DNA of 64,000 nucleotides from an uncultured Candidatus Saccharibacteria bacterium (lineage in GTDB: Bacteria > Patescibacteriota > Minisyncoccia > RBG-13-40-8-A), in NCBI GenBank assembly GCA_965231075.1, contig OZ246412.1, positions 463,282 to 527,281 on the forward strand. The letters are read 5' to 3'. Of the stretch, positions 4,651-49,588 are shown in pieces. The notes beneath the pieces were generated by a model that saw only the letters and a list, made by a program, of their open reading frames with translations, was not told where the DNA came from and searched no databases. A program made the position numbers and the translations under genes. How positions within the stretch are numbered: the first letter of the stretch is position 1; the number at the start of each line of letters is the position of its first letter.

Positions 4651-5364
4651 GTTTTTTGGCGATTATTAATTTTTATTTTTTTATGCTGATTAATATCGAC
4701 CGTGGCCTTCAGGAGCACACATTGATCAGTAGAACGCAAAACGAGGAACGCACAAATGCGTTCCTCGTATGATTAAAATGGAAAAATCCAGAAGTTAAAC
4801 CACAAAGATACGCATTGCAACGCAATGTTTTAATGATTTAACTTCCGGATTTTTACGAGCGATCTTCACTCAAGAATGTTGGGTCACTTCTGTTGTTCTG
4901 ATCTGATTTTGTGAGCACATTCACTCACAAAGCAATAAATACTGAACTATGCGACAGAAGGTTGAATAAACCTCGAAAAGTTTTTGGATCTATTTTATTT
5001 TTAATGCTCTATTTTAATGTTAGCAAATTTTATTAAAATGTCAAGTCCAACATTATGCCTAACAGCCCATAATGAGTCAACCTGTTGGTAACTCGACTTC
5101 GCAAAGCCATTAAAATGAGATAACATGGGATTGATGTAGAAATCGATTTAAGTTATAATTCAATTAACAATTAAATAGCTTATAAGCAGATCTAAACCAT
5201 TTAGAGAAATCTGATGGCATGATCCAAAAACGTTCAACACAGAAAGCTCTTAGTCAGAGCACGTGTTGAACGTCATATCAGGAAACTGATATGGGTCCCG
5301 CAAGGGATCGCTGGCTAGGAGCTTTGTGTTTCTCGCCAATAATAATTAAAATCTATACAAAAAC

Positions 5365-5844
5365 ATGGGAAAATTAACAAATAAACTTAATCTCAAAATA
5401 CCAACATTTCTAAGGTGGATATTGTTTATTCCCGTTACTTTAATAATTTATAAAATTATTACCTTCGTAGTTTATCTCGGGGTTACTTTTTTGTTTCATT
5501 TTCTGGGCACACTGCATTGGTATCTCTTAATAATAATTCTGTTTCCTGCCGTTATCCTGCTAATAATTATTGCTGGTGGTATATGGGCTTGTTTCTATCT
5601 GGGGCTATCTCTCAGTCCTAATAAATTATTGTGCTGGCTACTCTCTGCGTGGCTTATATTCTCAGCGATTTCAACTATTCATGGATACTACTCACCAATC
5701 CCGCAGCAAGGTATTGATATTTCAATGCCCTGTTGGGCATATGTGATATTGCAAGCATATATTATTATCAGCTTAATAATGGCTGCCATTGTTAGTGGAA
5801 AAAATATTTCAAATAGAGAAGATAATAAAAATCAGGTAAAATAA
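5365..5844 (+). CDS. hypothetical polytopic membrane protein
   Basis: 159 aa, 4-5 hydrophobic helices, no recognisable motif. Confidence 0.4.
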   Translation: MGKLTNKLNLKIPTFLRWILFIPVTLIIYKIITFVVYLGVTFLFHFLGTLHWYLLIIILFPAVILLIIIAGGIWACFYLGLSLSPNKLLCWLLSAWLIFSAISTIHGYYSPIPQQGIDISMPCWAYVILQAYIIISLIMAAIVSGKNISNREDNKNQVK

Positions 5845-6291: not shown

Positions 6292-6492
6292 AGATACATA
6301 CAATTGAATACGTTAATTATCAAGAGTGTGGCGAGAGCACTGGCTCAATGACCCACCGGCAACCCTTTAAGGCGACTCCTCAAGGAAGGTGCCAATTCCA
6401 GCTCCAAAAGGAGAAAGATAAAAGGTCGATTTTTTATTACTCTTTCTTTGTGGAAAGAGTTTTTTAATTATTAAATTAGTAAAAATAAAAAT

Positions 6493-6906
6493 ATGGAAAG
6501 TTTTGAAGAACAATTGAAACAAGGAATTCTTTATGGATTTATTCCCAAAGAGTTACAAATAGAGGGGCGTCCGGAATTAAACGTTTTTCCATTTAACGTT
6601 CTTTTTATGCGATTTAAACAAGAAGACGGGAAAACAATTTCCGGAAGCGCAGTATATGATCCAGATTTAAATTCGTTACAACAAGGCGCAGATAAATGGT
6701 CTATGCGTTACAATAACGCTTATGGTGGCGATAGTTGGCTTATAGTCGAATATGATATTGTGAGCAGGGGTTATCATGGTAAAAAATTCGTGAATGGTAA
6801 GTGCGTCGGAATAACAGATGGCCTAGAATGGAAAGGATTTTTTATACATCTCACCATATTGGGCCTATCCAATGGTGAACAATGCAGATTTGAGACTGTC
6901 GATTAA
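6493..6906 (+). CDS. hypothetical protein
   Basis: 137 aa ORF with AT-rich genome-typical codon usage; no motif recognised. Confidence 0.4.
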   Translation: MESFEEQLKQGILYGFIPKELQIEGRPELNVFPFNVLFMRFKQEDGKTISGSAVYDPDLNSLQQGADKWSMRYNNAYGGDSWLIVEYDIVSRGYHGKKFVNGKCVGITDGLEWKGFFIHLTILGLSNGEQCRFETVD

Positions 6907-7657
6907 ATTTCTCCAAAATCCAATTCAGGGACTGGAAAAAAGAGAAGAAAAGAGATATGATGAAGATGTAATGAAATCTATAAAAAACAATAGATTTATA
7001 ATTAAATCCAAGCAGAGAATCAAGGACCATGGAGAAGTATTTACTCCTGATTTTATTGTGCAAGAAATGCTTGATTTGGTAAAAAATGAAACTGAAAGGA
7101 TTGAATCCCGATTTTTGGAACCAGCTTGTGGCGATGGAAATTTTTTAGCTCCGATACTTGAGAGAAAACTTGAAGTGGTAAAGAGCAAATATAAATCAAG
7201 CCAAGTTGAATTTGAACGGAATGCTCTTTTGGCAGTGAGTAGTATTTATGGCGTTGAATTGTTGCAAGACAACGTTGTAGCGTGTATTGAGCGACTTTAT
7301 AAAATTGTTGATGAAGTATATTCAAAATTATACAAAGAAAAGTGCAGTATTGATTTTAGAAAAAGCATTCGATTTGTATTAAACAGGAATATCTTGCAAG
7401 GCAACGCGCTTGATCTAAAAACTTCTGATGGCAAAGAGCATATAGTTTTCTCCGAATGGTCACCTGCAAATGGCAGTTCAATTAAGAGAAGAGATTTTAG
7501 ATTTTTGGCTCTATCTAATTTTTATAAACCAGGCACATTGCCACTTGATTCAGTAAAAGAACTTTCAGATACCGGCGAAACCGTATTTTCCCCAATGCCG
7601 ATAAAAGAATTTCCGTTGAAACACTATCTTAAACTTGATTATGAAGATGCAAAATAA
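6872..7657 (+). CDS. N6-adenine methyltransferase-like protein lacking the catalytic NPPY/DPPY motif (methyltransferase paralog / possible partner subunit)
   Basis: motif X FTP ([13 protein letters not shown]) and motif [11 protein letters not shown] present, no motif IV anywhere in 261 aa; overlaps downstream methyltransferase gene start. Confidence 0.5.
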
Positions 7658-9137
7658 TTACAATCCGGACGTATTGTCGTGTTTAGCAAATCTTAGTAGT
7701 GATGAAGTTTTCACACCACCAAAATTAGCGAACGAAATATTAGATTTGCTTCCTCAAAAAATTTGGAAAGATAAAAACGCAACTTTTTTGGATCCGGTTT
7801 GTAAGTCGGGAGTATTCCTTCGCGAAATTGCAAGAAGATTGTTAGAGGGACTTAAAGAAGAAATCCCAGATATACAAAAACGCGTTGATCATATTTATAG
7901 GAATCAGCTTTTTGGAATAGGCATTACTGGATTGACCTCACTACTTTCTAGGCGCAGCTTGTATTGTTCAAAATCCGCTAATGGAAAATACTCTGTATCT
8001 AACACTTTTAATAATGAACAAGGTAATATTTCTTTCGAAAAGACGGAGCATGATTGGAAAAACGGAAGATGCTCTTTTTGTGGAGCTAGCCAATCAGAGT
8101 ATCAGCGTGAGAAGGGGCTCGAAACTCACGCTTATCAATTTATACATAATAAAAAACCTAATATAATAAACAATATGAAATTTGATGTAATTATAGGCAA
8201 CCCGCCTTATCAACTCGCGACAGGAGGAGCACAAGCACAAGCGACTCCCTTATATGATAAATTTGTTTTGCAGGCGAAGAAATTAAACCCACGCTTTTTA
8301 ACAATGATCATACCATCAAGATGGTTTTCAGGCGGGATGGGATTAAATGAATTTAGGGCAGAGATGTTAAAAGATACCAGAATAAGAAAATTGATTGATT
8401 ACCCAATATCATCAGAATGTTTTCCTGGTGTCGAGATTAAGGGGGGTGTATGCTATTTCCTTTGGGATAGGGAGAATAAAGGATTGTGTGAAGTTACTTC
8501 TATTAGAGGTGACAGAAAAACCATTTCTCAGAGACCCTTGTTGGAAGAGGGTCAAGACATTTTTATTAGATTTAATGAGGCATTGTCAATTTTATCTAAA
8601 GTAAAAAAACTTAAGGAAAAGTCTTTCTCCGATATCGTAAGTCCACAAAAACCTTTTGGTTTCCCAACAAATTTTAGAGGAAAAACTAAGCCATTCAAAA
8701 ACGCAGTTAAAATTTATGTCACAAAAGAAATAAATTACGTAAATAGAGAAGATATTTCTACTAATCTTGATTGGATTAATCAATATAAAATATTAATTAC
8801 CAAGGGTTATGGTGCTGGCGAAGATTACCCCCATCAGATAATTAATAAACCAATTCTAGCTGAACCAGGAAGTTGTTGTTCTGAGACTTATATTGTCTTG
8901 GGAACATTTTCAAATAAAACACAAGCTCAAAATGCAATATCCTATATAGAGACAAAATTCTTCCGATTTTTGGTGATGTTACAAAAAAACACTCAGGACG
9001 CATTGAGACGTGTTTATACTCTTGTCCCAATACAAGATTTTTCTGAATCATGGACTGACGAAAAGTTATATAAAAAATACAAATTAACAAAAGAAGAAAT
9101 TGAGTTTATTGAATCTATGATTCGTCCGATGAAATAA
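7635..9137 (+). CDS. gamma-class N6-adenine DNA methyltransferase (Eco57I/TaqI-like arrangement) with C-terminal target-recognition region
   Basis: motif X VFTPP, motif [12 protein letters not shown], motif [10 protein letters not shown] in canonical gamma order; ~300 aa C-terminal extension. Confidence 0.8.
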
Positions 9138-9138
9138 T

Positions 9139-11670
9139 ATGAGTAAAGATTTCTTTCCGCAAAAACCTGAAATTAGACCCACTATTTACGCCTATGAACT
9201 TATAGGCGTTGATTCACATAAGGGCCTGTTTAAGGTTGGCTACACTGTTCGTAATGCACAAGACAGAGTCGCCGAGCAATTAAAAACTAGCCGGCTTAAA
9301 TATAAAATTGTTCTCGAAGAATTCGCTGTTAGAAACGACGGAACTGCCTTTACAGATCATGAAGTCCATCATTATTTGAAACGTCGTAGCATTAAGAAAG
9401 AAGACGGAGAATGGTTTAAATGCACCGTAAAAGATATCAAGTCGGCTATCAATGATATAAGGAATCGAAAATTTAGTGTTGAAACGCGGGGATCAAATTT
9501 TAAAATGCGTCCAGAACAGAAGGCGGCGGTAGAAAAAACAGCAGATTATTTTGCGAGTTATAAAAAAGAAAATCCCAGTAAAACACCGCATTTTTTATGG
9601 AATGCAAAAATGCGTTTTGGTAAAACTTTTGCAACCTATCAATTGGCGAAAAAGATGGAGTGGACAAAGATTTTGGTAATGACTTTTAAGCCAGCAGTAG
9701 AAAGTGCTTGGGATGACGATTTAAAGGAACATGTTGATTTTCGAAATTGGCAATTTGTTTCAGCATCAGAGGACACGCTTTGGCATAAAGATATTAATCC
9801 CAAAAAACCGTTCGTGTGCTTCGGTTCATTTCAAGATTATTTAGGAAAAAATAAAAGCACAGGCGGTGTCAAAACAAAAAATAAGTGGGTACATAAAACT
9901 AAATGGGATTGTATTGTATTTGATGAATATCATTATGGTGCGTGGCGAGAAAATGCCAAAGAACTTTTTGAAGCAGAAGATAAAAAAGAAAAAGAATTTG
10001 CCGAGGGTCAAGGACTGGAATATTTAGACGAAAAAACATTGCCCATTGAAACGGAGGCATATTTATACCTTTCGGGGACTCCGTTTAGAGCAATAGCATC
10101 TGGCGAATTTATCGAGGAACAGATTTATAACTGGACATACTCGGACGAACAAAAAGCTAAAAATTCTTGGAATGACAAAGAAGGTTCTAATCCGTATGCC
10201 CCTCTTCCGCGCATGGTAATGATGACCTATCAACTACCGGATTCAATTCGAGATATAGCAATGCAGGGCGAATTCAATGAATTTGATTTGAACTTGTTTT
10301 TCTCTGCGGAGGGCAAGGGCAGGAATGCAAAATTTGCTTATGAGGACGAAGTTCAAAAATGGCTCGATTTGATTCGGGGTTCATTTTTAGAAACAACGAT
10401 TGACAACTTAAAGCTTGGCGCAAAAAAGCCTCCAATGCCCTTTTCTCATGCGGAACTTTTGAGTGTATTAAATCACACACTTTGGTTTTTGCCATCAGTT
10501 GCTTCGTGTCAGGCAATGTATAATTTACTAAAGAAAAAACAAAATACTTTTTATCATGATTATGAAATCATTGTGGCAGCAGGTCAGAAAGCGGGTATCG
10601 GGTTAAAAGCACTTCCGCCAGTTTTGGAAGCCATGGAAGATCCGCTGGAATCAAAAACTATTACTTTAACTTGTGGAAAGCTTTTGACTGGCGTAACCGT
10701 AAGGCCGTGGACAGGTATTTTCATGCTTCGCAATTGTTCAACTCCGGAAACATATTTTCAAGCCGCTTTCCGTGTTCAGTCTCCGTGGATCGTCAAAAAC
10801 CCGGATAACAAATCTCCGAATAAAGAAGAAATTATCAAGCAAGAGTGTTATGTCTTTGATTTTGCGCCCAATAGAGCATTGAGACAAATTGCTGAATATA
10901 GCTGTCGTCTTAACGTAAACGAATCTAATCCAGAGGCAAAAGTGGCTGAGTTTATAAGTTTTCTTCCGGTGCTTGCATATGATGGGAGTGCCATGAAACA
11001 AATCGATGCAGCGGGAATTTTAGACATGGCAATGAGTGGTACTACAGCAACACTTCTTGCGCGACGATGGGAAAGCGCCCTACTTGTAAATGTCGACAAC
11101 AATACATTAAACAGATTAATGAATGACAAAGCAGCAATGGACGCGCTCATGAGCATTGAAGGGTTTAGAAATTTGAATCAAGACATTGAGACGATTATTA
11201 ACAAATCCGAGTCTGTTGAAAAGATAAAAAGGGAGACGAACGACAAAGAGTTATCCAAAAAAGAGAAGAGAGAGCTTACCGAGGAAGAAAAAGAATACAA
11301 GAGTCTCCGCAAGCGGGTGCAGGATAAGCTTATTAAGTTTGCTACTCGCATACCCGTCTTTATGTATCTTACAGATTATCGCGAAAGAACATTAAAAGAT
11401 GTGATTACAAAACTAGAGCCTGGATTATTTAAAAAAGTTACCGGATTAACTCAAAAAGATTTCGAATTACTTGTAAGTCTCGGGGTATTCAATAGTGCAC
11501 TGATGAACGATGCGGTTTATAAGTTTAAGCGATATGAAGACGCGAGTCTTGTTTATACTGGAATAAATAAACACGAAGGTGAAAAAATAGGTCTTTATGA
11601 TACTGTGATCTCACAAGGAGAACATCGAAACGAGTCCGAAAAAATACTTATAAATAATCCGGCTGAATAA
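9139..11670 (+). CDS. T5orf172/GIY-YIG-like domain fused to SF2 (ResIII/DEAH-type) helicase; Res-like subunit
   Basis: N-terminal YAYELIGVDSHKGLFKVGYT...R motif of T5orf172/GIY-YIG superfamily; Walker A AKMRFGKT, motif II VFDEYHYGA, motif III LSGTPF, motif VI QAAFRVQS; start codon 1 nt after methyltransferase stop. Confidence 0.75.
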   Translation: MSKDFFPQKPEIRPTIYAYELIGVDSHKGLFKVGYTVRNAQDRVAEQLKTSRLKYKIVLEEFAVRNDGTAFTDHEVHHYLKRRSIKKEDGEWFKCTVKDIKSAINDIRNRKFSVETRGSNFKMRPEQKAAVEKTADYFASYKKENPSKTPHFLWNAKMRFGKTFATYQLAKKMEWTKILVMTFKPAVESAWDDDLKEHVDFRNWQFVSASEDTLWHKDINPKKPFVCFGSFQDYLGKNKSTGGVKTKNKWVHKTKWDCIVFDEYHYGAWRENAKELFEAEDKKEKEFAEGQGLEYLDEKTLPIETEAYLYLSGTPFRAIASGEFIEEQIYNWTYSDEQKAKNSWNDKEGSNPYAPLPRMVMMTYQLPDSIRDIAMQGEFNEFDLNLFFSAEGKGRNAKFAYEDEVQKWLDLIRGSFLETTIDNLKLGAKKPPMPFSHAELLSVLNHTLWFLPSVASCQAMYNLLKKKQNTFYHDYEIIVAAGQKAGIGLKALPPVLEAMEDPLESKTITLTCGKLLTGVTVRPWTGIFMLRNCSTPETYFQAAFRVQSPWIVKNPDNKSPNKEEIIKQECYVFDFAPNRALRQIAEYSCRLNVNESNPEAKVAEFISFLPVLAYDGSAMKQIDAAGILDMAMSGTTATLLARRWESALLVNVDNNTLNRLMNDKAAMDALMSIEGFRNLNQDIETIINKSESVEKIKRETNDKELSKKEKRELTEEEKEYKSLRKRVQDKLIKFATRIPVFMYLTDYRERTLKDVITKLEPGLFKKVTGLTQKDFELLVSLGVFNSALMNDAVYKFKRYEDASLVYTGINKHEGEKIGLYDTVISQGEHRNESEKILINNPAE

Positions 11671-13578: not shown

Positions 13579-14109
13579 ATGGATCAACTTAGTGGATTAT
13601 TTGGAAAATTGTTATTGTATTTGGGGCCAATTTTTATTGTGGCCTTAATAATTAAATATTTATTGCCAGAATTAATTAAGGCATTCAAGATAAGGAAGAA
13701 ATTTAAAGCTGGGCAAAAATGGAGTTCAGAAAAAGATTTAATTTATTGGTTGCGAGGAATGAAACCGTGGGAGTTTGAGGAATACATTTCTGGACTATTT
13801 TCAAAATTAGGTTATAAAATAGAAAAAGTCGGTGGAGGATATGATAAAGGAGTCGATGTTATTGCAGAGAAAAATGGAATTAAACACTATATCCAATGCA
13901 AGAAATACATAACTTCTGAAGTTGGAGTTGGCGAGGTTAGAGATTTTTATGGCGCAATTGCCGATCATTTGGCCCAAGGCAAGGGTTATTTCATAACCAC
14001 GAACAAATTCACCTTAGAAGCAGAAAAATTCGCTGAAAGCAAGCCAATCGAACTAATTGATTCTTATGGACTACTAAAGTATATTAAATTGGCAGAAGAT
14101 AAAAAATAA
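13579..14109 (+). CDS. membrane-anchored Mrr-like restriction endonuclease (Mrr_cat domain)
   Basis: N-terminal TM helix then YDKGVDVIAEK...IQCKKY (PD-(D/E)xK of Mrr family), GAIADHLAQGKGYFITT typical downstream segment. Confidence 0.65.
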   Translation: MDQLSGLFGKLLLYLGPIFIVALIIKYLLPELIKAFKIRKKFKAGQKWSSEKDLIYWLRGMKPWEFEEYISGLFSKLGYKIEKVGGGYDKGVDVIAEKNGIKHYIQCKKYITSEVGVGEVRDFYGAIADHLAQGKGYFITTNKFTLEAEKFAESKPIELIDSYGLLKYIKLAEDKK

Positions 14110-14111
14110 AA

Positions 14112-14798
14112 ATGCAAAAATTAGATAGAACGAAATATATTAGTGGAAAAAATCTCGGTGAATTGGCATTACAAAAATTTTGTCCAAGGTGTTTTTGGTT
14201 AAAAAGACACATTGGAGATACGCCGGGCGGTTTTCCTGGCATATTCTCCACTATCGATAGTTTAACCAAAAGAAGCACAAAGAGATCTTTTGATTCTAAA
14301 AATATTCCTCCACTTTGGTTAAAAATAAATGGTCTCAAAAAGGTTTTATCTGTTCCCAAGATAAAAGTTGATATGAGTGAGCATGGCGGATGGATTTTAA
14401 CTGGTGCCATTGATGATGCCTTTTTGAGAGATGACGGGACAGTGCATATCGTAGACTATAAGACCGCAAAGCATACAAAGACACAAGACGAATTACGACC
14501 AGAATACGATGTTCAATTAAATGCCTATGCACTTGCTTTACAAAAAATGGGGATTGGAAAGGTATCTCGTTTGTCTTTGATCTATTGCGAACCTAGTGAA
14601 AATTTAGATTCTGATAGTGATTTTAAATTATCTTTTAGTACACATATTGAAGATGTTGAAATAAACCCCGACCTTGTTCCCAAACTTCTGATTAAGGCAA
14701 GAAATATTTTAAATGCCGATATTCCCAATTCTATTGAAAAATGTACTGGTATTTGTTCGTGGATAGAAAAATACGACGTCAAAATGAGTAATTTATAA
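14112..14798 (+). CDS. Cas4/RecB-like PD-(D/E)xK nuclease with Cys cluster
   Basis: N-terminal CPRC, core GAIDDAF...VHIVDYKTAKH, C-terminal CTGICSW; architecture of Cas4/Dna2-type Fe-S nucleases; no CRISPR array nearby. Confidence 0.6.
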   Translation: MQKLDRTKYISGKNLGELALQKFCPRCFWLKRHIGDTPGGFPGIFSTIDSLTKRSTKRSFDSKNIPPLWLKINGLKKVLSVPKIKVDMSEHGGWILTGAIDDAFLRDDGTVHIVDYKTAKHTKTQDELRPEYDVQLNAYALALQKMGIGKVSRLSLIYCEPSENLDSDSDFKLSFSTHIEDVEINPDLVPKLLIKARNILNADIPNSIEKCTGICSWIEKYDVKMSNL

Positions 14799-14799
14799 A

Positions 14800-16308
14800 A
14801 TGAACGACGATTTATTGCAAAAATTAAAAGTCTGGAGACAAAACATGGTCAACATTGAAAAAGTTGAACCATTTCGAATTTTTACAAACAAAACATTGGA
14901 AAATATTGCAGAAATAAAACCATCAAACCGAGAGGAGCTGATGGCTATAAAGGGTATCAAAGATAGAAAATTTGCAAAATATGGAGAAAAGATTCTATCT
15001 ATAATCAATAATGGTGAAGAGTATCCAGAATTATTTAATAGTTCTCCAAACAAGCAACCCGACAAACCACTGTCTGTTAGTGCGTATATAGATTTGTTGA
15101 ATCATCAACTGAGCAAGTGTAGTGCCAGAATTAAGGGGGAAATTAGTAGTGTAGACACAAGAGATCGAGTTATATATTTCTCGCTCAAAGATTCAGACGA
15201 TGAGAGTATTATTAATTGTTTAATTTGGAAACGCGATTATAATTTGAGTGGCATTGAATTTGAGGTGGGCATGGAAGTTATTCTTGAAGGAACGCCCGAC
15301 ATGTACAAACCAACTGGTCGACTGTCGTTTAAGGCCTCATCGGTTGAGTTGGTTGGAGAGGGTGCCCTTAAAAAAGCATATGATCAATTGAAAAAGAAAC
15401 TCACCGCTGAAGGATTATTGTTAAAGGAGAGAAAAAGAGAAATTCCCAACCTTCCCCAAAAAATCGGAATAATTACTTCTCGACAAGGAGCAGTTTTAGC
15501 GGATTTCTTAAGTAATATTGGCCATTATGGTTTTAAAATTAAAATGATTGATTCTAGAGTCGAAGGACAGTCAGCTGTCACAGATTTACTGTCAGCCATT
15601 AAAACCATCAAGAAAAAAAATATTGAAGTTTTAGTTATCATGAGGGGCGGCGGTTCTTTTGAATCATTGCAGCCATTTAATAATGAATTATTAATTAGAG
15701 AGATTGTAAATTTTCCCGTTCCGGTAATTGCGGCAATTGGTCACGACAAAGACATGCCATTAGTTTCTTTGGTTGCAGACCTTGAAGTTTCCACGCCAAG
15801 CATTGCCGCCATTACGCTCAGCAAATCATGGAGGGAAGCCATTATGTTTTTAGAAAAGCATGAAAGAAGTATATTTGATAATTATGGAAATAACATAAAA
15901 AATACACACGACTTAATAAGTCAATCAATCGAGATAACTCGAGAATCCAGCGAATCTATTATCAAAAAATATAAAGATATTAAAAATAATTTTAGAGTCT
16001 CGGTCCAAATTTTTAAAAACACTTTATTAAATATTAAAGATGGTTTAACAGATTTTTGTAGCAAAACATTATTCGGTTTTAGCGGATTAGTTAAGAGAGG
16101 GTATCAACAACTGGAAAAATCGAGAAGCATTATCTCCGCGCATAATCCAGAACGACAATTGAGCCTGGGATACAGCATAGCTAGCATTGACGGCAAGATA
16201 GTTAAAAGCGTAAAAGATGCCACCGCGGGAAACAACATAAATTTAATGGTTACCGACGGAACGATTATTTCACAAATTAAAAATATAAATAAGAAATTAA
16301 TAAAATAA
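14800..16308 (+). CDS. xseA: exodeoxyribonuclease VII large subunit with N-terminal HRDC domain fusion
   Basis: residues ~1-80 match the HRDC pattern (LQKLKVWRQN..EPFRIFTNKTLENIAEIKPSNREELMAIKGIKDRKFAKYGEKIL); rest matches XseA (IGIITSRQGAVLADFL, VIMRGGGSFESL, AIGHDKD). Confidence 0.85.
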   Translation: MNDDLLQKLKVWRQNMVNIEKVEPFRIFTNKTLENIAEIKPSNREELMAIKGIKDRKFAKYGEKILSIINNGEEYPELFNSSPNKQPDKPLSVSAYIDLLNHQLSKCSARIKGEISSVDTRDRVIYFSLKDSDDESIINCLIWKRDYNLSGIEFEVGMEVILEGTPDMYKPTGRLSFKASSVELVGEGALKKAYDQLKKKLTAEGLLLKERKREIPNLPQKIGIITSRQGAVLADFLSNIGHYGFKIKMIDSRVEGQSAVTDLLSAIKTIKKKNIEVLVIMRGGGSFESLQPFNNELLIREIVNFPVPVIAAIGHDKDMPLVSLVADLEVSTPSIAAITLSKSWREAIMFLEKHERSIFDNYGNNIKNTHDLISQSIEITRESSESIIKKYKDIKNNFRVSVQIFKNTLLNIKDGLTDFCSKTLFGFSGLVKRGYQQLEKSRSIISAHNPERQLSLGYSIASIDGKIVKSVKDATAGNNINLMVTDGTIISQIKNINKKLIK

Positions 16309-16313
16309 ATAAT

Positions 16314-16547
16314 ATGCCAAAAGAATATGCCAAAAATTTAAATAATGATCTTAAGCGCTTATCGGAGATTACCGATTGGTTTAATAATCAAGAAGAAGTT
16401 GACGTAGAAGAGGGACTAAAAAAAGTGAAAGAAGCGGTCGGACTCATTAAGGCCAGTAAATCCAGACTTAAAGAGATAGAGAACGAATTTGAAGAAATTA
16501 AAAAGGAAATAGAAACAGAAGAAAAAACGGATGAAGAAAATAATTAA
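16314..16547 (+). CDS. xseB: exodeoxyribonuclease VII small subunit
   Basis: 77 aa, acidic helical protein directly downstream of xseA; LSEITDWFNNQE..VDVEEGLKKVKEAVGLIKASKSRL fits XseB. Confidence 0.75.
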   Translation: MPKEYAKNLNNDLKRLSEITDWFNNQEEVDVEEGLKKVKEAVGLIKASKSRLKEIENEFEEIKKEIETEEKTDEENN

Positions 16548-19622: not shown

Positions 19623-20591
19623 ATGAGTCACAAAATATTCTCAGAAAAAATTGATCTTATTCACAAGGCTCGCGAAGCCATGCTTTCGGCTGTTCAAATT
19701 TATAATAATCCACTCATCACATTTAAGACAGAATCTTTTATAGTTCTATCATTAATTGCGTGGACTTATATGCTTCATGCACACTATCGTTCTGAGAGAA
19801 TTGATTATCGTTATTCTACTATACCAAAAAAGCGCAAAAAATTTGTTCGTAATCCAGACGGAAGTATTCGTTATTGGGATCTAACGGAATGTATTTCCCG
19901 ACAAGCCTGTCCTCTCGACAAAGACACAAAAAATAATTTAGGCTTTCTGATAGGATTGCGGAATCAAATTGAACACAAAAAAGCTACGGGACTAGATTCA
20001 TATCTATCGGCTCGTTATCAAGCATGTGCCCTAAATTTTAATTATTACCTTAAAAAAATTCATGGAGAAAAATTTGGATTAGATCAAAGCCTAGCTCTAA
20101 GTTTACAATTTGCGGAACTCGATTATTCTCAATCAAAAATTATCAAAGATAAAGAAGGATTAATACCTCAGGATATAATTTCTTATATCGCTAATTTCGA
20201 TGGCAAACTATCAAATGCCGAGATAGAGAGTGACAGATTCGCATATAGATTACTTTTTACTAAAGTGGTTGCGAAAAGAAAAGGACAAGCAGATAGAGTT
20301 ATCGAGTTTATTGATCCAAATTCGAAGCTAGCCAAGAATATCTCTCAGCAATATTGGGTTAAAGAAGAAAAAGAGAAAGCAAAGTTTTCTGCGACTCAAG
20401 TAATCCAAAAAGTGCAAGAAGCTGGATTTAAAAGTTTTAGCATGCATCAACATACTGTTTTTTGGAAAGAGCGTGATGGCAAAAATCCCGACAAGGGATT
20501 CGGGGTAATTGTGGTTAAAACATGGTGTTGGTACCAAAATTGGATTGATTGCATAATCAACGAACTTAATAATGAAAAAACGGACAAATGA
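19623..20591 (+). CDS. HEPN-domain protein (Rx4-6H motif), Abi-like
   Basis: alpha-helical protein with GLRNQIEHKK (R-x4-H HEPN signature). Confidence 0.55.
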   Translation: MSHKIFSEKIDLIHKAREAMLSAVQIYNNPLITFKTESFIVLSLIAWTYMLHAHYRSERIDYRYSTIPKKRKKFVRNPDGSIRYWDLTECISRQACPLDKDTKNNLGFLIGLRNQIEHKKATGLDSYLSARYQACALNFNYYLKKIHGEKFGLDQSLALSLQFAELDYSQSKIIKDKEGLIPQDIISYIANFDGKLSNAEIESDRFAYRLLFTKVVAKRKGQADRVIEFIDPNSKLAKNISQQYWVKEEKEKAKFSATQVIQKVQEAGFKSFSMHQHTVFWKERDGKNPDKGFGVIVVKTWCWYQNWIDCIINELNNEKTDK

Positions 20592-20732: not shown

Positions 20733-21302
20733 TTGTTTATGTCTAGTGAAATAAAAATCCTACAAAAAGAAAATCGAGAATTAAAAAAAGAAATCAACCA
20801 ACTAAAGGAATTGGTTACCGTTGATTATCTCACTAAAATATATAATCGTCGTGCTTTTTCTCATTTTTTAAAAAATCTTTGCCAAGAAGTAAAATGGACG
20901 GCTCAAAACATGAGTCGTCGACAGCGCAAAGAATTTTTTTCTTTATTGTTAATTGATATCGATGATTTTAAAAAAATAAATGATGCCCACGGACATCTCT
21001 ATGGTGACAAGGTTTTACAAAAAGTCGCAAGGTTTTTAGAAAACTCCGTTAGAGATTTTGATGTTGTCGCTCGGTGGGGAGGCGAAGAATTTGTAATTAT
21101 TTTACAAGAGGCAACCCTTAGACAGGCCCAAGCTAGGGCAGAAGTAATATTAAAAAATGCTCCTAAAAAACTATCGATTACCTTTAGCATTGGCGTAGTC
21201 GAATCAAGTCCTGGACTTACAGAAAAATCAATATTCCATAAAGCCGATCGTGCTGTTTATAAAGCAAAAAGGTTGGGCAAGAATCAAATTGTTTTAGCGT
21301 AA
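20733..21302 (+). CDS. GGDEF-domain diguanylate cyclase with N-terminal coiled coil
   Basis: RxxF...IDIDDFKKINDAHGH...RWGGEEF active-site motif. Confidence 0.85.
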   Translation: MFMSSEIKILQKENRELKKEINQLKELVTVDYLTKIYNRRAFSHFLKNLCQEVKWTAQNMSRRQRKEFFSLLLIDIDDFKKINDAHGHLYGDKVLQKVARFLENSVRDFDVVARWGGEEFVIILQEATLRQAQARAEVILKNAPKKLSITFSIGVVESSPGLTEKSIFHKADRAVYKAKRLGKNQIVLA

Positions 21303-43666: not shown

Positions 43667-43740
43667 GGGCGTGTAGCTCAGCTGGTTAGAGCACGGCTCT
43701 TATAAAGCCGGGGTCGATGGTTCGAGTCCATCCACGCCCA
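43667..43740 (+). tRNA. tRNA-Ile (anticodon TAT)
   Basis: acceptor gggcgtg/cacgccc, D gctc/gagc, anticodon stem cggct/agccg loop cttataa, T-arm gatgg ttcgagt ccatc. Confidence 0.85.
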
Positions 43741-43745
43741 TTTTT

Positions 43746-43774
43746 AAAACCCCCCGCAGTGCGGGGGGTTTTAT
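43746..43774. terminator. bidirectional GC hairpin terminator between tRNA-Ile (+) and speH-like gene (-)
   Basis: aaaacccccc gcagt gcgggggg tttt. Confidence 0.7.
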
Positions 43775-43777
43775 TAT

Positions 43778-44155
43778 TTACTCTCCAACTTTTATTGGTC
43801 TTTGAATAAAATCAACTGATTGAGGATTAACTTTTTGTTTGAAAATTTCGTATGTCTGCATTCCATCCTCTTCTCCTCTACAAGAATATAATCCAAAATA
43901 AATTGAATTATGCTCCGGATAAGTATGGATCGATACGTGCGATTCAGCTAACAATACCATCAAAGTAAATCCGTTTGGCTTAAAATTGTGGGATGCCTTT
44001 CCCAAGATCGTAAACTGATCTTCCTTTAATGCTCCTAAAAGAGCATCCTCAAGTTCGGCACTATTGTTGATAATTTCTTGATTTACGCCATGTAACACAC
44101 AAGAAATTTCGTTCCCCAACGAAGGGGACCGGTATGCGTCATCCATAAGCCACAA
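43778..44155 (-). CDS. speH: S-adenosylmethionine decarboxylase proenzyme (pyruvoyl-dependent, SpeH type)
   Basis: LAESHVSIHTYPE processing/active-site motif; 125 aa. Confidence 0.7.
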   Translation of the reverse strand: MWLMDDAYRSPSLGNEISCVLHGVNQEIINNSAELEDALLGALKEDQFTILGKASHNFKPNGFTLMVLLAESHVSIHTYPEHNSIYFGLYSCRGEEDGMQTYEIFKQKVNPQSVDFIQRPIKVGE

Positions 44156-44226
44156 AATACTATTTTAAGCTTGCCTAAATTTAAAGGTTCTGCTATTATT
44201 AATTATTATAAATTTATAATAACACA

Positions 44227-44460
44227 ATGAATTTAGAAGCACAAAATGAACGAAATTCTTCCGAAAAATTAATCCTGGGAATACAACGAGAATTGATTTC
44301 GGAAGTCTGTGGCAAAGACCGTGCCAAACAAGCGCAATGGATAGATAAGTATAGTGAAATCTTTCGACAAATTGTCGAAACTGATCCTAGATTGGTTTGG
44401 GAATATCCTCACACGAAAGATGAATTAAGGGCGCTTCTTTACAAAGAAACAACACATTAA
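44227..44460 (+). CDS. hypothetical small protein
   Basis: 77 aa ORF, no motif. Confidence 0.3.
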   Translation: MNLEAQNERNSSEKLILGIQRELISEVCGKDRAKQAQWIDKYSEIFRQIVETDPRLVWEYPHTKDELRALLYKETTH

Positions 44461-44465
44461 TTTAG

Positions 44466-44540
44466 GGGCGTGTAGTTCAGTGGTAGAACGCTACATTGAC
44501 ATTGTAGAGATCGGAGGTTCGATCCCTCCCGCGCCCACCA
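44466..44540 (+). tRNA. tRNA-Val (anticodon GAC), CCA encoded
   Basis: acceptor gggcgtg/cgcgccc, anticodon stem ctaca/tgtag loop ttgacat, T-arm ggagg ttcgatc cctcc, then acca. Confidence 0.9.
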
Positions 44541-45190
44541 TGGAAATACCAACCATTTTCGAGGACGACAATATTGTTATCATAAATAAGCCGGCGGGAT
44601 TATTAGTTCATCCGGTTACCAACGAAAAAGATACTCTAATCGATATTTTAAAAATCAAACACCCTAATGCTGAATTGGTTCACCGATTAGATCAAGACAC
44701 TTCTGGCGTAATGGTTATAGCAAAAAACAATCAGATCGCAGAATTTTTAAAACAACAATTCAAAGATAGAATTATCAAGAAAAAATACGTTGCCCTAGTT
44801 TATGGGATTTTAAAAGAAAAAAAGGGCATTATCGTTAAATCGATTTCCAAATCCAGAAAAAGGGGTGGCTCACAAACCATCGCACCAATTGGAAAAAATC
44901 GCGAAGCGGTTACAAGATACGAAGTTGTTCAAGAATTTGCTGATTATTCCTTATTAGAAGTTTCTCCCGAGACTGGCAGAACCCACCAAATTAGAGTTCA
45001 TCTCGCATCAATTGGGCATCCAATTGTCGGAGATGAAAAATATAAATTTAAAAGACAAAAAACAATCGAAGGTCTTAATCGGCAATTTTTACATGCTAAA
45101 TATTTAAAACTTTCTCTGCTTGACGGAGAAATAAAAGAGTTCTATGCTGAATTACCAGAAGAACTAAGTAATATATTAAAAAATATATGA
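44540..45190 (+). CDS. RluA-family pseudouridine synthase
   Basis: HRLDQDTSGVMVIAKN catalytic Asp motif; start placed at MEIPTIF because the upstream part of the ORF overlaps the tRNA. Confidence 0.85.
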   Translation: MEIPTIFEDDNIVIINKPAGLLVHPVTNEKDTLIDILKIKHPNAELVHRLDQDTSGVMVIAKNNQIAEFLKQQFKDRIIKKKYVALVYGILKEKKGIIVKSISKSRKRGGSQTIAPIGKNREAVTRYEVVQEFADYSLLEVSPETGRTHQIRVHLASIGHPIVGDEKYKFKRQKTIEGLNRQFLHAKYLKLSLLDGEIKEFYAELPEELSNILKNI

Positions 45191-45564
45191 CCAATAAATT
45201 AGATAAATTTAAAGAAAAATTTGTGAAGAAAGATATCCCAGAAATTAGAACTGGTGATATTGTTAAAGTTCACATCAAACTTGCCGAAAAGACAAAGGCT
45301 GGCGGAGACAAAATCCAGATTTTTGAAGGACTGGTAATTGCCAAGAAACACGGAAAGGGAATGGAGGGAACTTTTACGGTTAGAAAAATCGCTGAAGGGG
45401 TGGGAGTGGAAAAGGTATTCCCTCTTCAATGCCCAACAATTTCTAAAATTGAAATCGTTAAGCACTCAAAAGTAAGACGCGCAAAACTTTATTACATGAG
45501 AGGAAGAATTGGAAAGAAAGCAAGAATGTCCGCCCTCGCCGAACCTACTACCGAAGCGAAATAA
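45187..45564 (+). CDS. rplS: 50S ribosomal protein L19
   Basis: GDIVKVHIKLAEKTKAGGDKIQIFEGLVIAKKHGKGMEGTFTVRK. Confidence 0.95.
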   Translation: MTNKLDKFKEKFVKKDIPEIRTGDIVKVHIKLAEKTKAGGDKIQIFEGLVIAKKHGKGMEGTFTVRKIAEGVGVEKVFPLQCPTISKIEIVKHSKVRRAKLYYMRGRIGKKARMSALAEPTTEAK

Positions 45565-45570
45565 TCTTCC

Positions 45571-45654
45571 GCGCGGGTGCTGTAATTGGTAGCCAGGCTA
45601 GCCTAAGGAGCTAGTGGGAATTATCCCGTGGAGGTTCGAGTCCTCTCCCGCGCA
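45571..45654 (+). tRNA. tRNA-Leu, type II; anticodon loop ctaagga reads AAG by my fold (unusual)
   Basis: acceptor gcgcggg/cccgcgc, anticodon stem ctagc/gctag, long variable arm, T-arm ggagg ttcgagt cctct. Confidence 0.75.
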
Positions 45655-45730
45655 TCAGATTAGATCCGACACGTCCGGTAATCAATTGTTAAATAAAAAA
45701 TTACGACTTTACGGGTCGTAATTTTTTTGT

Positions 45731-45805
45731 TGGAGCGGAAGACGGGATTCGCACCCGCGACCTTCTCCTTGGCAAGGAGACGTTCTGCTGCTGAACTACT
45801 TCCGC
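45731..45805 (-). tRNA. tRNA-Gly (anticodon GCC), CCA encoded
   Basis: minus strand gcggaag...cttccgc t cca; anticodon stem tctcc/ggaga loop ttgccaa; T-loop tgcgaat noncanonical. Confidence 0.8.
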
Positions 45806-45809
45806 AAGA

Positions 45810-45881
45810 TGCCGAGGGAGAGAATCGGACTCTCGACACCACGATTTTCAGTCGTGTGCTCTACCACTGAGCTACCCCGGC
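45810..45881 (-). tRNA. tRNA-Phe (anticodon GAA)
   Basis: minus strand gccgggg ta gctc agtggta gagc; anticodon stem cacga/tcgtg loop ctgaaaa; T-loop tccgatt. Confidence 0.8.
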
Positions 45882-45914
45882 GTAATTTTATATTTATGAT
45901 ATCTTATCGTTATT

Positions 45915-46481
45915 TTATTGTAAAGGTTGAAGTACAATTTGTGACTCACCATTAATGCATTGATCAGCATCAAATCCTTGGTTTATCATTAACTGTTCTG
46001 CATAAATTGGAATCGTGTTTCCATTAGATAAGTTGCCCTGCACTCCAACATAAATTCCGGGAGGAATCGTGCATCCGTATCTAGTTGCTCCTAATGGCCA
46101 ATAATTATAATCGTACTCTCCTCCCCAAGGGGTAGTATCTGGCCAATTATTTGTATACGGTCCAGACCAATTTTGATTTATAATTGTTGTCCAGTTTGAC
46201 GGACAATGATCGCATGGGACAATATAGCTTTCGCCTGTAACATAATCATATGGCAATGAATGAGCTAGTCCAGGATCCCACCCCCTACTCACATCAGGAG
46301 GATAAAATCCCATATCGTTATAATAAAATTCTACCGCCAGTGCAAGATTTTTTGCTGTGCTCCCCGCCCCCACAACCCTTCCTTTTTCTTTAGCATTATT
46401 CATGCTCACTAAAACGATAGTTGCCAACAAACCAATAATTGCGATTACAACTAGAAGTTCTATCAATGTAAAGCTTTTCAT
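45915..46481 (-). CDS. type IV pilin / pseudopilin (prepilin N-terminal methylation motif)
   Basis: MKSFTLIELLVVIAIIGLLATIV class III signal peptide. Confidence 0.75.
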   Translation of the reverse strand: MKSFTLIELLVVIAIIGLLATIVLVSMNNAKEKGRVVGAGSTAKNLALAVEFYYNDMGFYPPDVSRGWDPGLAHSLPYDYVTGESYIVPCDHCPSNWTTIINQNWSGPYTNNWPDTTPWGGEYDYNYWPLGATRYGCTIPPGIYVGVQGNLSNGNTIPIYAEQLMINQGFDADQCINGESQIVLQPLQ

Positions 46482-46497
46482 TTTTTAAATATTTTAG

Positions 46498-46569
46498 AGG
46501 CCAGGATGGGAATCGAACCCATGTATAAGAGTTTTGCAGACTCATGCCTTACCACTTGGCGACCTGGCC
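46498..46569 (-). tRNA. tRNA-Cys (anticodon GCA)
   Basis: minus strand ggccagg...cctggcc; anticodon loop ctgcaaa; T-arm atggg ttcgatt cccat. Confidence 0.75.
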
Positions 46570-46575
46570 AATATG

Positions 46576-46647
46576 TGGGCGATGTAGGAGTCGAACCTAC
46601 CGTATTCTGCGTGTAGAGCAGACGTTTTACCGATAAACTAATCGCCC
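46576..46647 (-). tRNA. tRNA-Val (anticodon TAC)
   Basis: minus strand gggcgat ta gttt atcggta aaac; anticodon stem tctgc/gcaga loop tctacac; T-arm gtagg ttcgact cctac. Confidence 0.75.
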
Positions 46648-46706
46648 CTGCTGAGCCCCGCCTTCGCTAAAGCTACGGCGGGCAAGTAAACGCCCCAACA
46701 ACCATG

Positions 46707-46789
46707 TGCCGGGGGCGGGACTCGAACCCGCACGGTCGTGAGACCACAAGATTTTAAGTCTTGCGTGGCTGCCATTACACCACCCCGGC
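46707..46789 (-). tRNA. tRNA-Leu (anticodon TAA), type II
   Basis: minus strand gccgggg...ccccggc; anticodon stem caaga/tcttg loop cttaaaa; T-arm gcggg ttcgagt cccgc. Confidence 0.9.
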
Positions 46790-49246: not shown

Positions 49247-49334
49247 ATTTTTTACGTTCGGACCTGTCCATCTTTGGCGGAGAGTGGAGGATTTTCCGCC
49301 CAAGGCGGACCAGCCTCGGGCTGGGAACTACATT

Positions 49335-49421
49335 CGGAGAGGGTGAGATTCGAACTCACGATACCTTTTCAGATATACCGCTTTTCGAGAGCGGCCCATT
49401 CAACCACTCTGGCACCTCTCC
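49335..49421 (-). tRNA. tRNA-Ser (anticodon CGA), type II
   Basis: minus strand ggagagg...cctctcc g; anticodon stem ccgct/agcgg loop ctcgaaa; T-arm gtgag ttcgaat ctcac. Confidence 0.85.
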
Positions 49422-49431
49422 ATTATTGCGG

Positions 49432-49502
49432 TGGACCCAGGGGGAGTCGCACCCCCGACTCATCCATGCCATGGATGTGTTTTACTGCTGAACTATGGGC
49501 CC
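49432..49502 (-). tRNA. tRNA-Ala (anticodon GGC)
   Basis: minus strand gggccca...tgggtcc; anticodon stem catcc/ggatg loop atggcat; T-arm ggggg tgcgact ccccc. Confidence 0.7.
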
Positions 49503-49516
49503 AAAAAACTCTCGAT

Positions 49517-49588
49517 TGCCCCGACGAGGAATTGGACCCCGATCTCTCCCTTAGGACGGGATTGCTCTATCCGTTGAGCTATCAGGGC
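49517..49588 (-). tRNA. tRNA-Arg (anticodon CCT)
   Basis: minus strand gccctga ta gctc aacggata gagc; anticodon loop gtcctaa; T-loop tccaatt noncanonical. Confidence 0.7.

Follow-up and report, generated by a model that had tools for sequence, protein, structure and literature searches.

Exonuclease VII (ExoVII) of Escherichia coli is an XseA4·XseB24 particle, in which the N-terminal OB folds of XseA dimerise into a head that sequesters the catalytic domains (PMC10835039). The particle is autoinhibited and its activity is sterically gated (PMC10835039). Four residues of XseA, D155, R205, H238 and D241, are indispensable to activity (PMC3439923). The HRDC domain is familiar from other enzymes: in RecQ it lies C-terminal to the helicase, and in RNase D, Rrp6 and WRN, which are DEDD 3'-5' exonucleases, it lies C-terminal to the catalytic domain. 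ExoVII has a dehydroquinase-like fold unrelated to DEDD, and acts on single-stranded DNA (ssDNA) from both ends. Here we describe an xseA gene in which these two elements are combined in the opposite order, with the HRDC at the N-terminus. The gene lies, together with xseB, in a stretch of 64,000 nucleotides (the window) from an uncultured Candidatus Saccharibacteria bacterium (contig OZ246412.1, positions 463,282 to 527,281, forward strand). The fusion is a single conserved open reading frame (ORF), in which a RecQ-type HRDC is joined to the OB fold of XseA by a linker of about 20 residues.

A prediction made earlier from the sequence had assigned the first 80 or so residues of the xseA product to an HRDC and the rest to a normal XseA followed by xseB. 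Both assignments hold. In Pfam, HRDC (PF00570) matches residues 4-69 with an E-value of 9.3e-20 and 70.8 bits against a gathering score of 23.8, the match spanning profile positions 3-68 of 68. The OB fold (tRNA_anti_2, PF13742; 59 bits) follows at residues 93-182 and Exonuc_VII_L (PF02601) at residues 208-491 (E-value 1.2e-54, 186 bits against 35.9). Residues 100-493 match the NCBIfam equivalog for xseA, TIGR00237, with 299.1 bits (cutoff 180), and the only NCBIfam models to match residues 1-71 are those of RecQ and RNase D, through their C-terminal HRDC regions. The protein is not a RecQ helicase: TIGR01389 gives 49 bits against a cutoff of 640, with the HRDC region alone matching, and Pfam finds neither DEAD nor Helicase_C in the xseA product. 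The 77-residue ORF downstream is a marginal match to the small-subunit models (PF02609, 24.4 bits against a gathering score of 24.0; TIGR01280, 26.8 bits, under its cutoff of 35), and of 86 related loci, 77 have an xseB homologue directly 3' of xseA (tblastn).

The N-terminal domain is confirmed as an HRDC of the RecQ type. When a family profile built from 30 homologous N-termini is compared with the PDB, the best matches are bacterial RecQ HRDCs (2MA1, 2RHF and 1WUD; E-values 2e-13 to 6e-12), with BLM and WRN ranking after them, and neither RNase D nor Rrp6 is matched in sequence at E <= 0.01. In an AlphaFold model, residues 1-74 form five helices with a mean confidence score (pLDDT) of 86.4. 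Foldseek superimposes this model on the E. coli RecQ HRDC (1WUD) with a template-modelling (TM) score of 0.94 and a root-mean-square deviation of 0.7 Å over 72 residues, and on 2RHF with the same TM score. Bacterial RecQ HRDCs, those of E. coli (1WUD) and Deinococcus radiodurans (2MA1, 2RHF), thus share the five-helix fold (TM 0.91-0.94) and are also the nearest PDB sequences. The HRDCs of RNase D, Rrp6 and WRN are alike in fold (TM about 0.8-0.85) and are likewise accessory domains of an exonuclease, but the sequence similarity of the XseA HRDC to those of RNase D and Rrp6 is weak. Two further features recall the E. coli RecQ HRDC. F25 aligns with its Y555, and at least 90% of homologues have F or Y at this site; the domain is also basic (isoelectric point 9.6 in the window protein and 9.3 on average in homologues, against 9.7 for E. 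coli RecQ HRDC). The mutation Y555A abolishes ssDNA binding by the E. coli domain (PMC4464074). In spite of these similarities, HRDC-XseA has none of the helicase, zinc-binding and RQC domains of RecQ.

Beyond the HRDC, the protein follows the E. coli enzyme (8TXR; PMC10835039; PMC3439923) in the order of its parts, namely, OB fold, catalytic domain, long helix and C-terminal barrel, with xseB adjacent, and shares with it the D/R/H/D catalytic residues and the RGGG...GHxxD motif. The differences are that the HRDC and linker (residues 1-89) are extra, E. coli residue 22 aligning with residue 99 here, and that the identity of the cores is only about 25-27%. In the alignment to 8TXR, D235, R282, H315 and D318 correspond to D155, R205, H238 and D241 of E. 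coli, and all four are invariant in an alignment of 58 homologues, 48-91% identical, from which we also took regional identities. The active-site residues and the ExoVII core are thus intact. The full-length AlphaFold2 model (mean pLDDT 82.9) agrees with this arrangement: HRDC helices at residues 3-70 are followed by a helix at 93-104, the OB-fold beta strands at 109-184, an α/β catalytic domain, a single long helix at 333-447 and a C-terminal β domain. Foldseek matches the model to 8txr_A over 434 columns (8TXR, E-value 3e-30). Judging from alignment offsets, E. coli XseA has about 25 residues more in its helical domain. Differences between XseA tails come in units of one XseB-binding site, the "quantized" rule (PMC10835039), and from this rule and the shorter helical domain we infer about five XseB per XseA instead of six, as the two together suggest.

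The linker is the least constrained part of the protein. Its pLDDT falls below 50 at residues 73-86, and among the 58 homologues its length varies from 8 to 44 residues with a composition rich in E, K, D, S and N, so that it is predicted to be a disordered, polar and variable tether. In one metagenomic representative (P0183, 623 residues, with a seemingly truncated N-terminus) a DUF559/MTES_1575 domain, a Vsr-like endonuclease, occupies the linker position, giving the architecture HRDC-DUF559-OB-Exonuc_VII_L.

Conservation treats the HRDC very differently from the linker. Mean pairwise identity is 66% in the HRDC, 67% in the OB fold and 73% in the catalytic domain, against 20% in the linker; by this measure the HRDC is as strongly constrained as the OB fold. 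The N-terminus itself is conserved: 84 of the 120 best homologues start with M-x-x-x-LLQKLKxWR, and L9, W12 and R13 are invariant, all of them lying 5' of the alternative in-frame Met16 and Met48. The possibility, allowed for originally, that the true start lies downstream of the HRDC is therefore not what we find, the start at position 14800 being backed by the conserved N-terminus. Because the N-terminus is conserved and regional identity is like that of the OB fold, we conclude that the HRDC is expressed and under purifying selection.

The original prediction called HRDC-XseA a non-standard architecture, implying that it is rare. The first statement is correct relative to the E. coli and Thermotoga maritima enzymes but not within Patescibacteria, where the fusion predominates, and the implied rarity is contradicted by the numbers, as at least 78 species-level genomes and, at 50% identity, about 100 clusters have it. 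Among the 120 best homologues, 84 carry PF00570, PF13742 and PF02601 together, and the named sources belong to the Parcubacteria group or Patescibacteria, for example Staskawiczbacteria. An exhaustive hidden Markov model (HMM) search with an HRDC+OB profile over 1.84 billion cluster representatives (50% identity) gave 130 proteins at E <= 1e-30; the 150 best representatives include 99 with the full-length order HRDC-OB-catalytic-C-terminal domain and 17 more fragments that start HRDC-OB. In a survey of one genome per GTDB species, which found at least 80 loci, 78 of the 80 species-representative loci listed (at least 78 species), mostly from Parcubacteria-type Patescibacteria, have HRDC and XseA in one ORF. 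The record titles include Staskawicz-, Taylor-, Kaiser-, Jorgensen-, Taga-, Portnoy- and Moranbacteria/Moraniibacteriota as well as Paceibacterota. The XseA N-termini of relatives, whose survey had been proposed, thus carry the HRDC as a rule.

Outside Patescibacteria, HRDC-XseA is seen on a 198-kb contig of candidate division NPL-UPA2 (Unc8), an occurrence that looks genuine and could reflect horizontal transfer. It is also seen on a 3.5-kb contig of an actinobacterial metagenome-assembled genome (Ca. Oleimmundimicrobium) and on a 2.8-kb contig labelled Bathyarchaeia; these two short contigs may be mis-binned. HRDCs close to the XseA type are found, too, in tandem arrays on other repair proteins among metagenomic representatives (P0131, P0262, P0191, P0266, P0242). 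The forms are GIY-YIG with a zinc knuckle and four HRDCs, stand-alone arrays of three or four HRDCs, UvrD with three HRDCs, and RecQ with three HRDCs. In these lineages the HRDC seems to behave as a mobile accessory module.

The best reading of the gene pair is that it is the organism's ordinary housekeeping ExoVII (XseA + XseB), in the form typical of Parcubacteria-type Patescibacteria. What the HRDC contributes can be pictured by analogy with E. coli. The catalytic domains would be sequestered in a head built by the OB folds, as in XseA4·XseB24, and four tethered HRDCs would sit outside the head as auxiliary modules for binding nucleic acid. Their role would be the capture of ssDNA or of junctions of single- and double-stranded DNA, which would either raise the local substrate concentration or help open the autoinhibited particle. 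We lean, if not strongly, towards this picture of HRDCs that decorate the exterior of the head and capture such substrates. The more general proposal, already part of the original prediction, that the HRDC directs the nuclease to particular DNA structures is plausible. DNA targeting is favoured because the HRDC is basic, is conserved like the OB fold, and has an aromatic residue where RecQ has Y555.

Several points weigh against capture by the HRDC. A tetramer like that of E. coli is taken here as an assumption. The functions of HRDCs are heterogeneous, and the sequence data would suit a role in regulation or protein interaction just as well. The HRDC of WRN binds DNA poorly. That of E. coli RecQ contacts the RecA core in addition to DNA (PMC4464074). 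Finally, a clade of 34 close XseA relatives, a Falkowbacteria sequence among them, has no HRDC, so that the domain must be dispensable in some lineages.

The HRDC-less proteins (e.g. that of Falkowbacteria, P0014 and P0056) are at most 71% identical to the window XseA over the core from the OB fold to the C-terminus. They begin about 8 residues ahead of the OB fold and have the same xseB partner. At two such loci (L085, L086), tblastn and hmmsearch at maximum sensitivity found neither an HRDC remnant nor a separate HRDC gene. In a rough neighbour-joining tree the clade is sister to the group of the window XseA, inside an HRDC-bearing background, and parsimony on the tree gives about 14 changes of gain or loss with an HRDC-bearing root. 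This suggests an old fusion with repeated losses, the analysis being rough (a sample biased by the HRDC+OB query, and midpoint rooting) and thus giving a hint of losses only.

The chief alternative to DNA capture is that the HRDC is a regulatory or protein-interaction module, which either docks on the OB/catalytic head and tunes its gated state or recruits ExoVII to a repair protein. There is precedent in E. coli, where the RecQ HRDC can bind either ssDNA or the RecA core, switching from one mode to the other, and suppresses the ATPase (PMC4464074), and ExoVII itself is autoinhibited, its active sites being sequestered (PMC10835039). The surface of the HRDC is also highly conserved at many positions that are not basic, such as N30, E34, P41 and G52. 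However, a disordered linker of 8-44 residues fits a loose tether better than fixed docking, the basic net charge and the conserved aromatic residue at the Y555 position speak for nucleic acid, and no third gene is conserved with xseAB that might be the partner. We regard a regulatory role as possible but rather unlikely.

A bolder version of the targeting idea is that the HRDC fusion has re-purposed ExoVII of the genome-reduced Patescibacteria into a structure-targeted nuclease, in which the tethered HRDCs would steer the autoinhibited XseA/XseB particle to forks, D-loops, gaps or protein-linked ends. On this view the enzyme could partly substitute for functions of the RecQ/RecJ type that these organisms may lack, and the linker would be an evolutionary docking site for nuclease modules, as the domain insertion in P0183 might illustrate. 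Taken as a whole, we find this version doubtful.

In comparison with substrate capture and regulation, which concern what the HRDC does, a third explanation concerns where the gene lies. The original prediction placed the operon in a defence island beside a Cas4-like nuclease, and HRDC-ExoVII might accordingly be a defence effector or accessory nuclease working with the Cas4-like PD-(D/E)XK, Mrr-like and type IIG restriction-modification (R-M) genes upstream. The upstream genes are indeed defence-like: PADLOC finds a type IIG methyltransferase/restriction endonuclease, an Mrr-type restriction endonuclease and a Cas4-like protein there, the genes are tightly packed on one strand, and the stop codon of the PD-(D/E)XK gene lies 1 nucleotide ahead of the xseA ATG. 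The name Cas4 fits less well. The PADLOC Cas4 model matches the PD-(D/E)XK gene with an E-value of 3e-9, but its Cas4 scores are under the cutoffs (PF01930, 14.8 against 22.7 bits; TIGR00372, 25 against 65). A tandem-repeat scan, which is not a dedicated CRISPR detector and was not accompanied by a search for cas1 or cas2, detected two short AT-rich repeats in the window but no repeat array.

The association itself does not extend to other genomes. When the window neighbours were searched by tblastn in 86 loci, Mrr, orf230, orf245 and orf192 were found solely in L001, which is the window's own sequence as assembled from a public sequencing run. Relatives of the PD-(D/E)XK gene lie within 6 kb of xseA in 5 of the 85 other loci and are adjacent to it in none, and xseB is the sole window neighbour that recurs beside xseA in those 85. 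The 142 nearest upstream proteins from 81 loci fall into 140 Pfam families, few of them restriction-related, the commonest (thioredoxin/DsbA) occurring 10 times. Downstream of xseAB, genes such as YceG and RecG are housekeeping. Moreover, xseAB is a near-universal bacterial repair operon and its catalytic core is canonical here. In two independent related contigs among three inspected by hand, L002 (602-6968) and L003 (1-4410), type IIG or type I R-M genes do lie upstream of HRDC-xseA, which counts for the association, but the R-M genes of these contigs and of the window (6872-11670) are not homologous individually. The upstream flank of xseAB may thus be a variable region and a recurrent insertion site for defence genes. 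Membership in a defence island is largely refuted by the lack of synteny, with xseB as the sole conserved partner, and we consider a defence role very unlikely. The implied link between fusion and island is likewise not supported, the Mrr-like and Cas4-like neighbours having no counterpart beside xseA elsewhere. The fusion is a lineage property of a core repair enzyme and not a feature of the island, and the defence genes upstream lie beside it by chance and do not work with it.

That the fusion is an artefact, the true XseA start lying after the HRDC or two genes having been merged by an assembly or frameshift error, has in its favour the in-frame Met16 and Met48 and the lack of a strong Shine-Dalgarno sequence upstream of 14800, but it is hardly credible and is rejected, as M-x-x-x-LLQKLKxWR is kept and residues ahead of Met16 are invariant, HRDC, linker and OB fold are in one frame in every homologue, and the same single ORF recurs in 78 of 80 independent species-level genomes and in the independent assembly of the window's organism (L001).

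Full-text literature searches brought up no description of an HRDC-XseA fusion. HRDC goes unmentioned in the structure-function papers on ExoVII of 2012 and 2024, the latter of which surveyed about 340 species (PMC3439923, PMC10835039). The fusion is visible in the precomputed Pfam annotations of hundreds of public proteins, whose source names read "exodeoxyribonuclease VII large subunit". Since annotation pipelines use this plain name, the extra domain is invisible in it. HRDC-XseA is best seen as a variant of a known enzyme, common although uncharacterised, and does not amount to a new kind of system; it is of modest interest to specialists on ExoVII and RecQ. Its value to them is that the structure of ExoVII has been understood only recently, as an autoinhibited particle. 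With an HRDC on the DNA-binding end of XseA across a large and diverse radiation, nature has in effect set up an experiment on the way in which ExoVII finds its substrates and lets them in. XseA also joins the repair enzymes that have recruited HRDCs, such as RecQ, UvrD, RNase D and GIY-YIG proteins.

Table 1. Features of the HRDC-xseA/xseB locus and of the genes upstream of it (window coordinates).
Feature	Coordinates	Strand	Evidence and remarks
xseA, ExoVII large subunit with N-terminal HRDC	14800..16308	+	502 residues; stop codon counted in coordinates
HRDC domain, residues 4-69, RecQ-type five-helix bundle	14809..15006	+	Pfam, PDB profile matches, AlphaFold2 model
Flexible linker, residues 71-89 (predicted)	15010..15066	+	Low pLDDT, low identity, variable length
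OB-fold DNA-binding domain, residues 93-184	15076..15351	+	PF13742, AlphaFold2 model, alignment to E. coli XseA
Catalytic domain, residues 187-332	15358..15795	+	Alignment to 8TXR; RGGG...GHxxD motif present
Long helical XseB-binding domain, residues 333-447	15796..16140	+	One helix in AlphaFold2 model
C-terminal beta-barrel domain, residues 448-502	16141..16305	+	Strands 460-492 in AlphaFold2 model; aligns with E. coli XseA 393-446
xseB, ExoVII small subunit, 77 residues	16314..16547	+	PF02609 marginal; position 5 nucleotides after xseA
PD-(D/E)XK nuclease, loosely Cas4-like	14112..14798	+	PDDEXK_1, E 1e-10; context, outside the xseAB unit
Mrr-like (type IV) restriction endonuclease	13579..14109	+	Mrr_cat, E 9e-28; PADLOC mREase_IV, E 6e-14; context
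Type IIG-like methyltransferase	7635-9137	+	Eco57I/N6 DNA methyltransferase, 500 residues
Helicase/restriction endonuclease-like protein, T5orf172/ResIII, 843 residues	9139-11670	+	Matches type IIG restriction endonuclease-methyltransferase model

A six-frame HMM scan of the window found no HRDC gene (RecQ or RNase D, for example) other than xseA. Promoter and terminator scans performed no better than on shuffled sequence. Upstream of the locus, a SAM (S-adenosylmethionine) riboswitch (RF00162, 67 bits) lies at 6314-6424 on the plus strand, directly ahead of a string of genes on the same strand (6493-11670). Besides the type IIG-like methyltransferase and the helicase/restriction endonuclease-like protein of Table 1, this string includes an unknown ORF of 137 residues and one of 261 residues that has a SAM-binding motif and a weak MmeI_Mtase match. 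A SAM riboswitch ahead of an R-M-like module, in place of genes for methionine or SAM biosynthesis, would be unusual. A LOOT RNA (RF03000) is found further upstream, at 5189-5309 on the plus strand (84.9 bits against a gathering score of 46.4), with a predicted membrane ORF of 159 residues (5365-5844) just downstream of it. Elsewhere, the window encodes a DUF3644 protein (19623-20591) and a stand-alone GGDEF protein (20733-21302). Of its 16 tRNA genes, the majority are grouped in two clusters (43667-46789 and 49334-49588).

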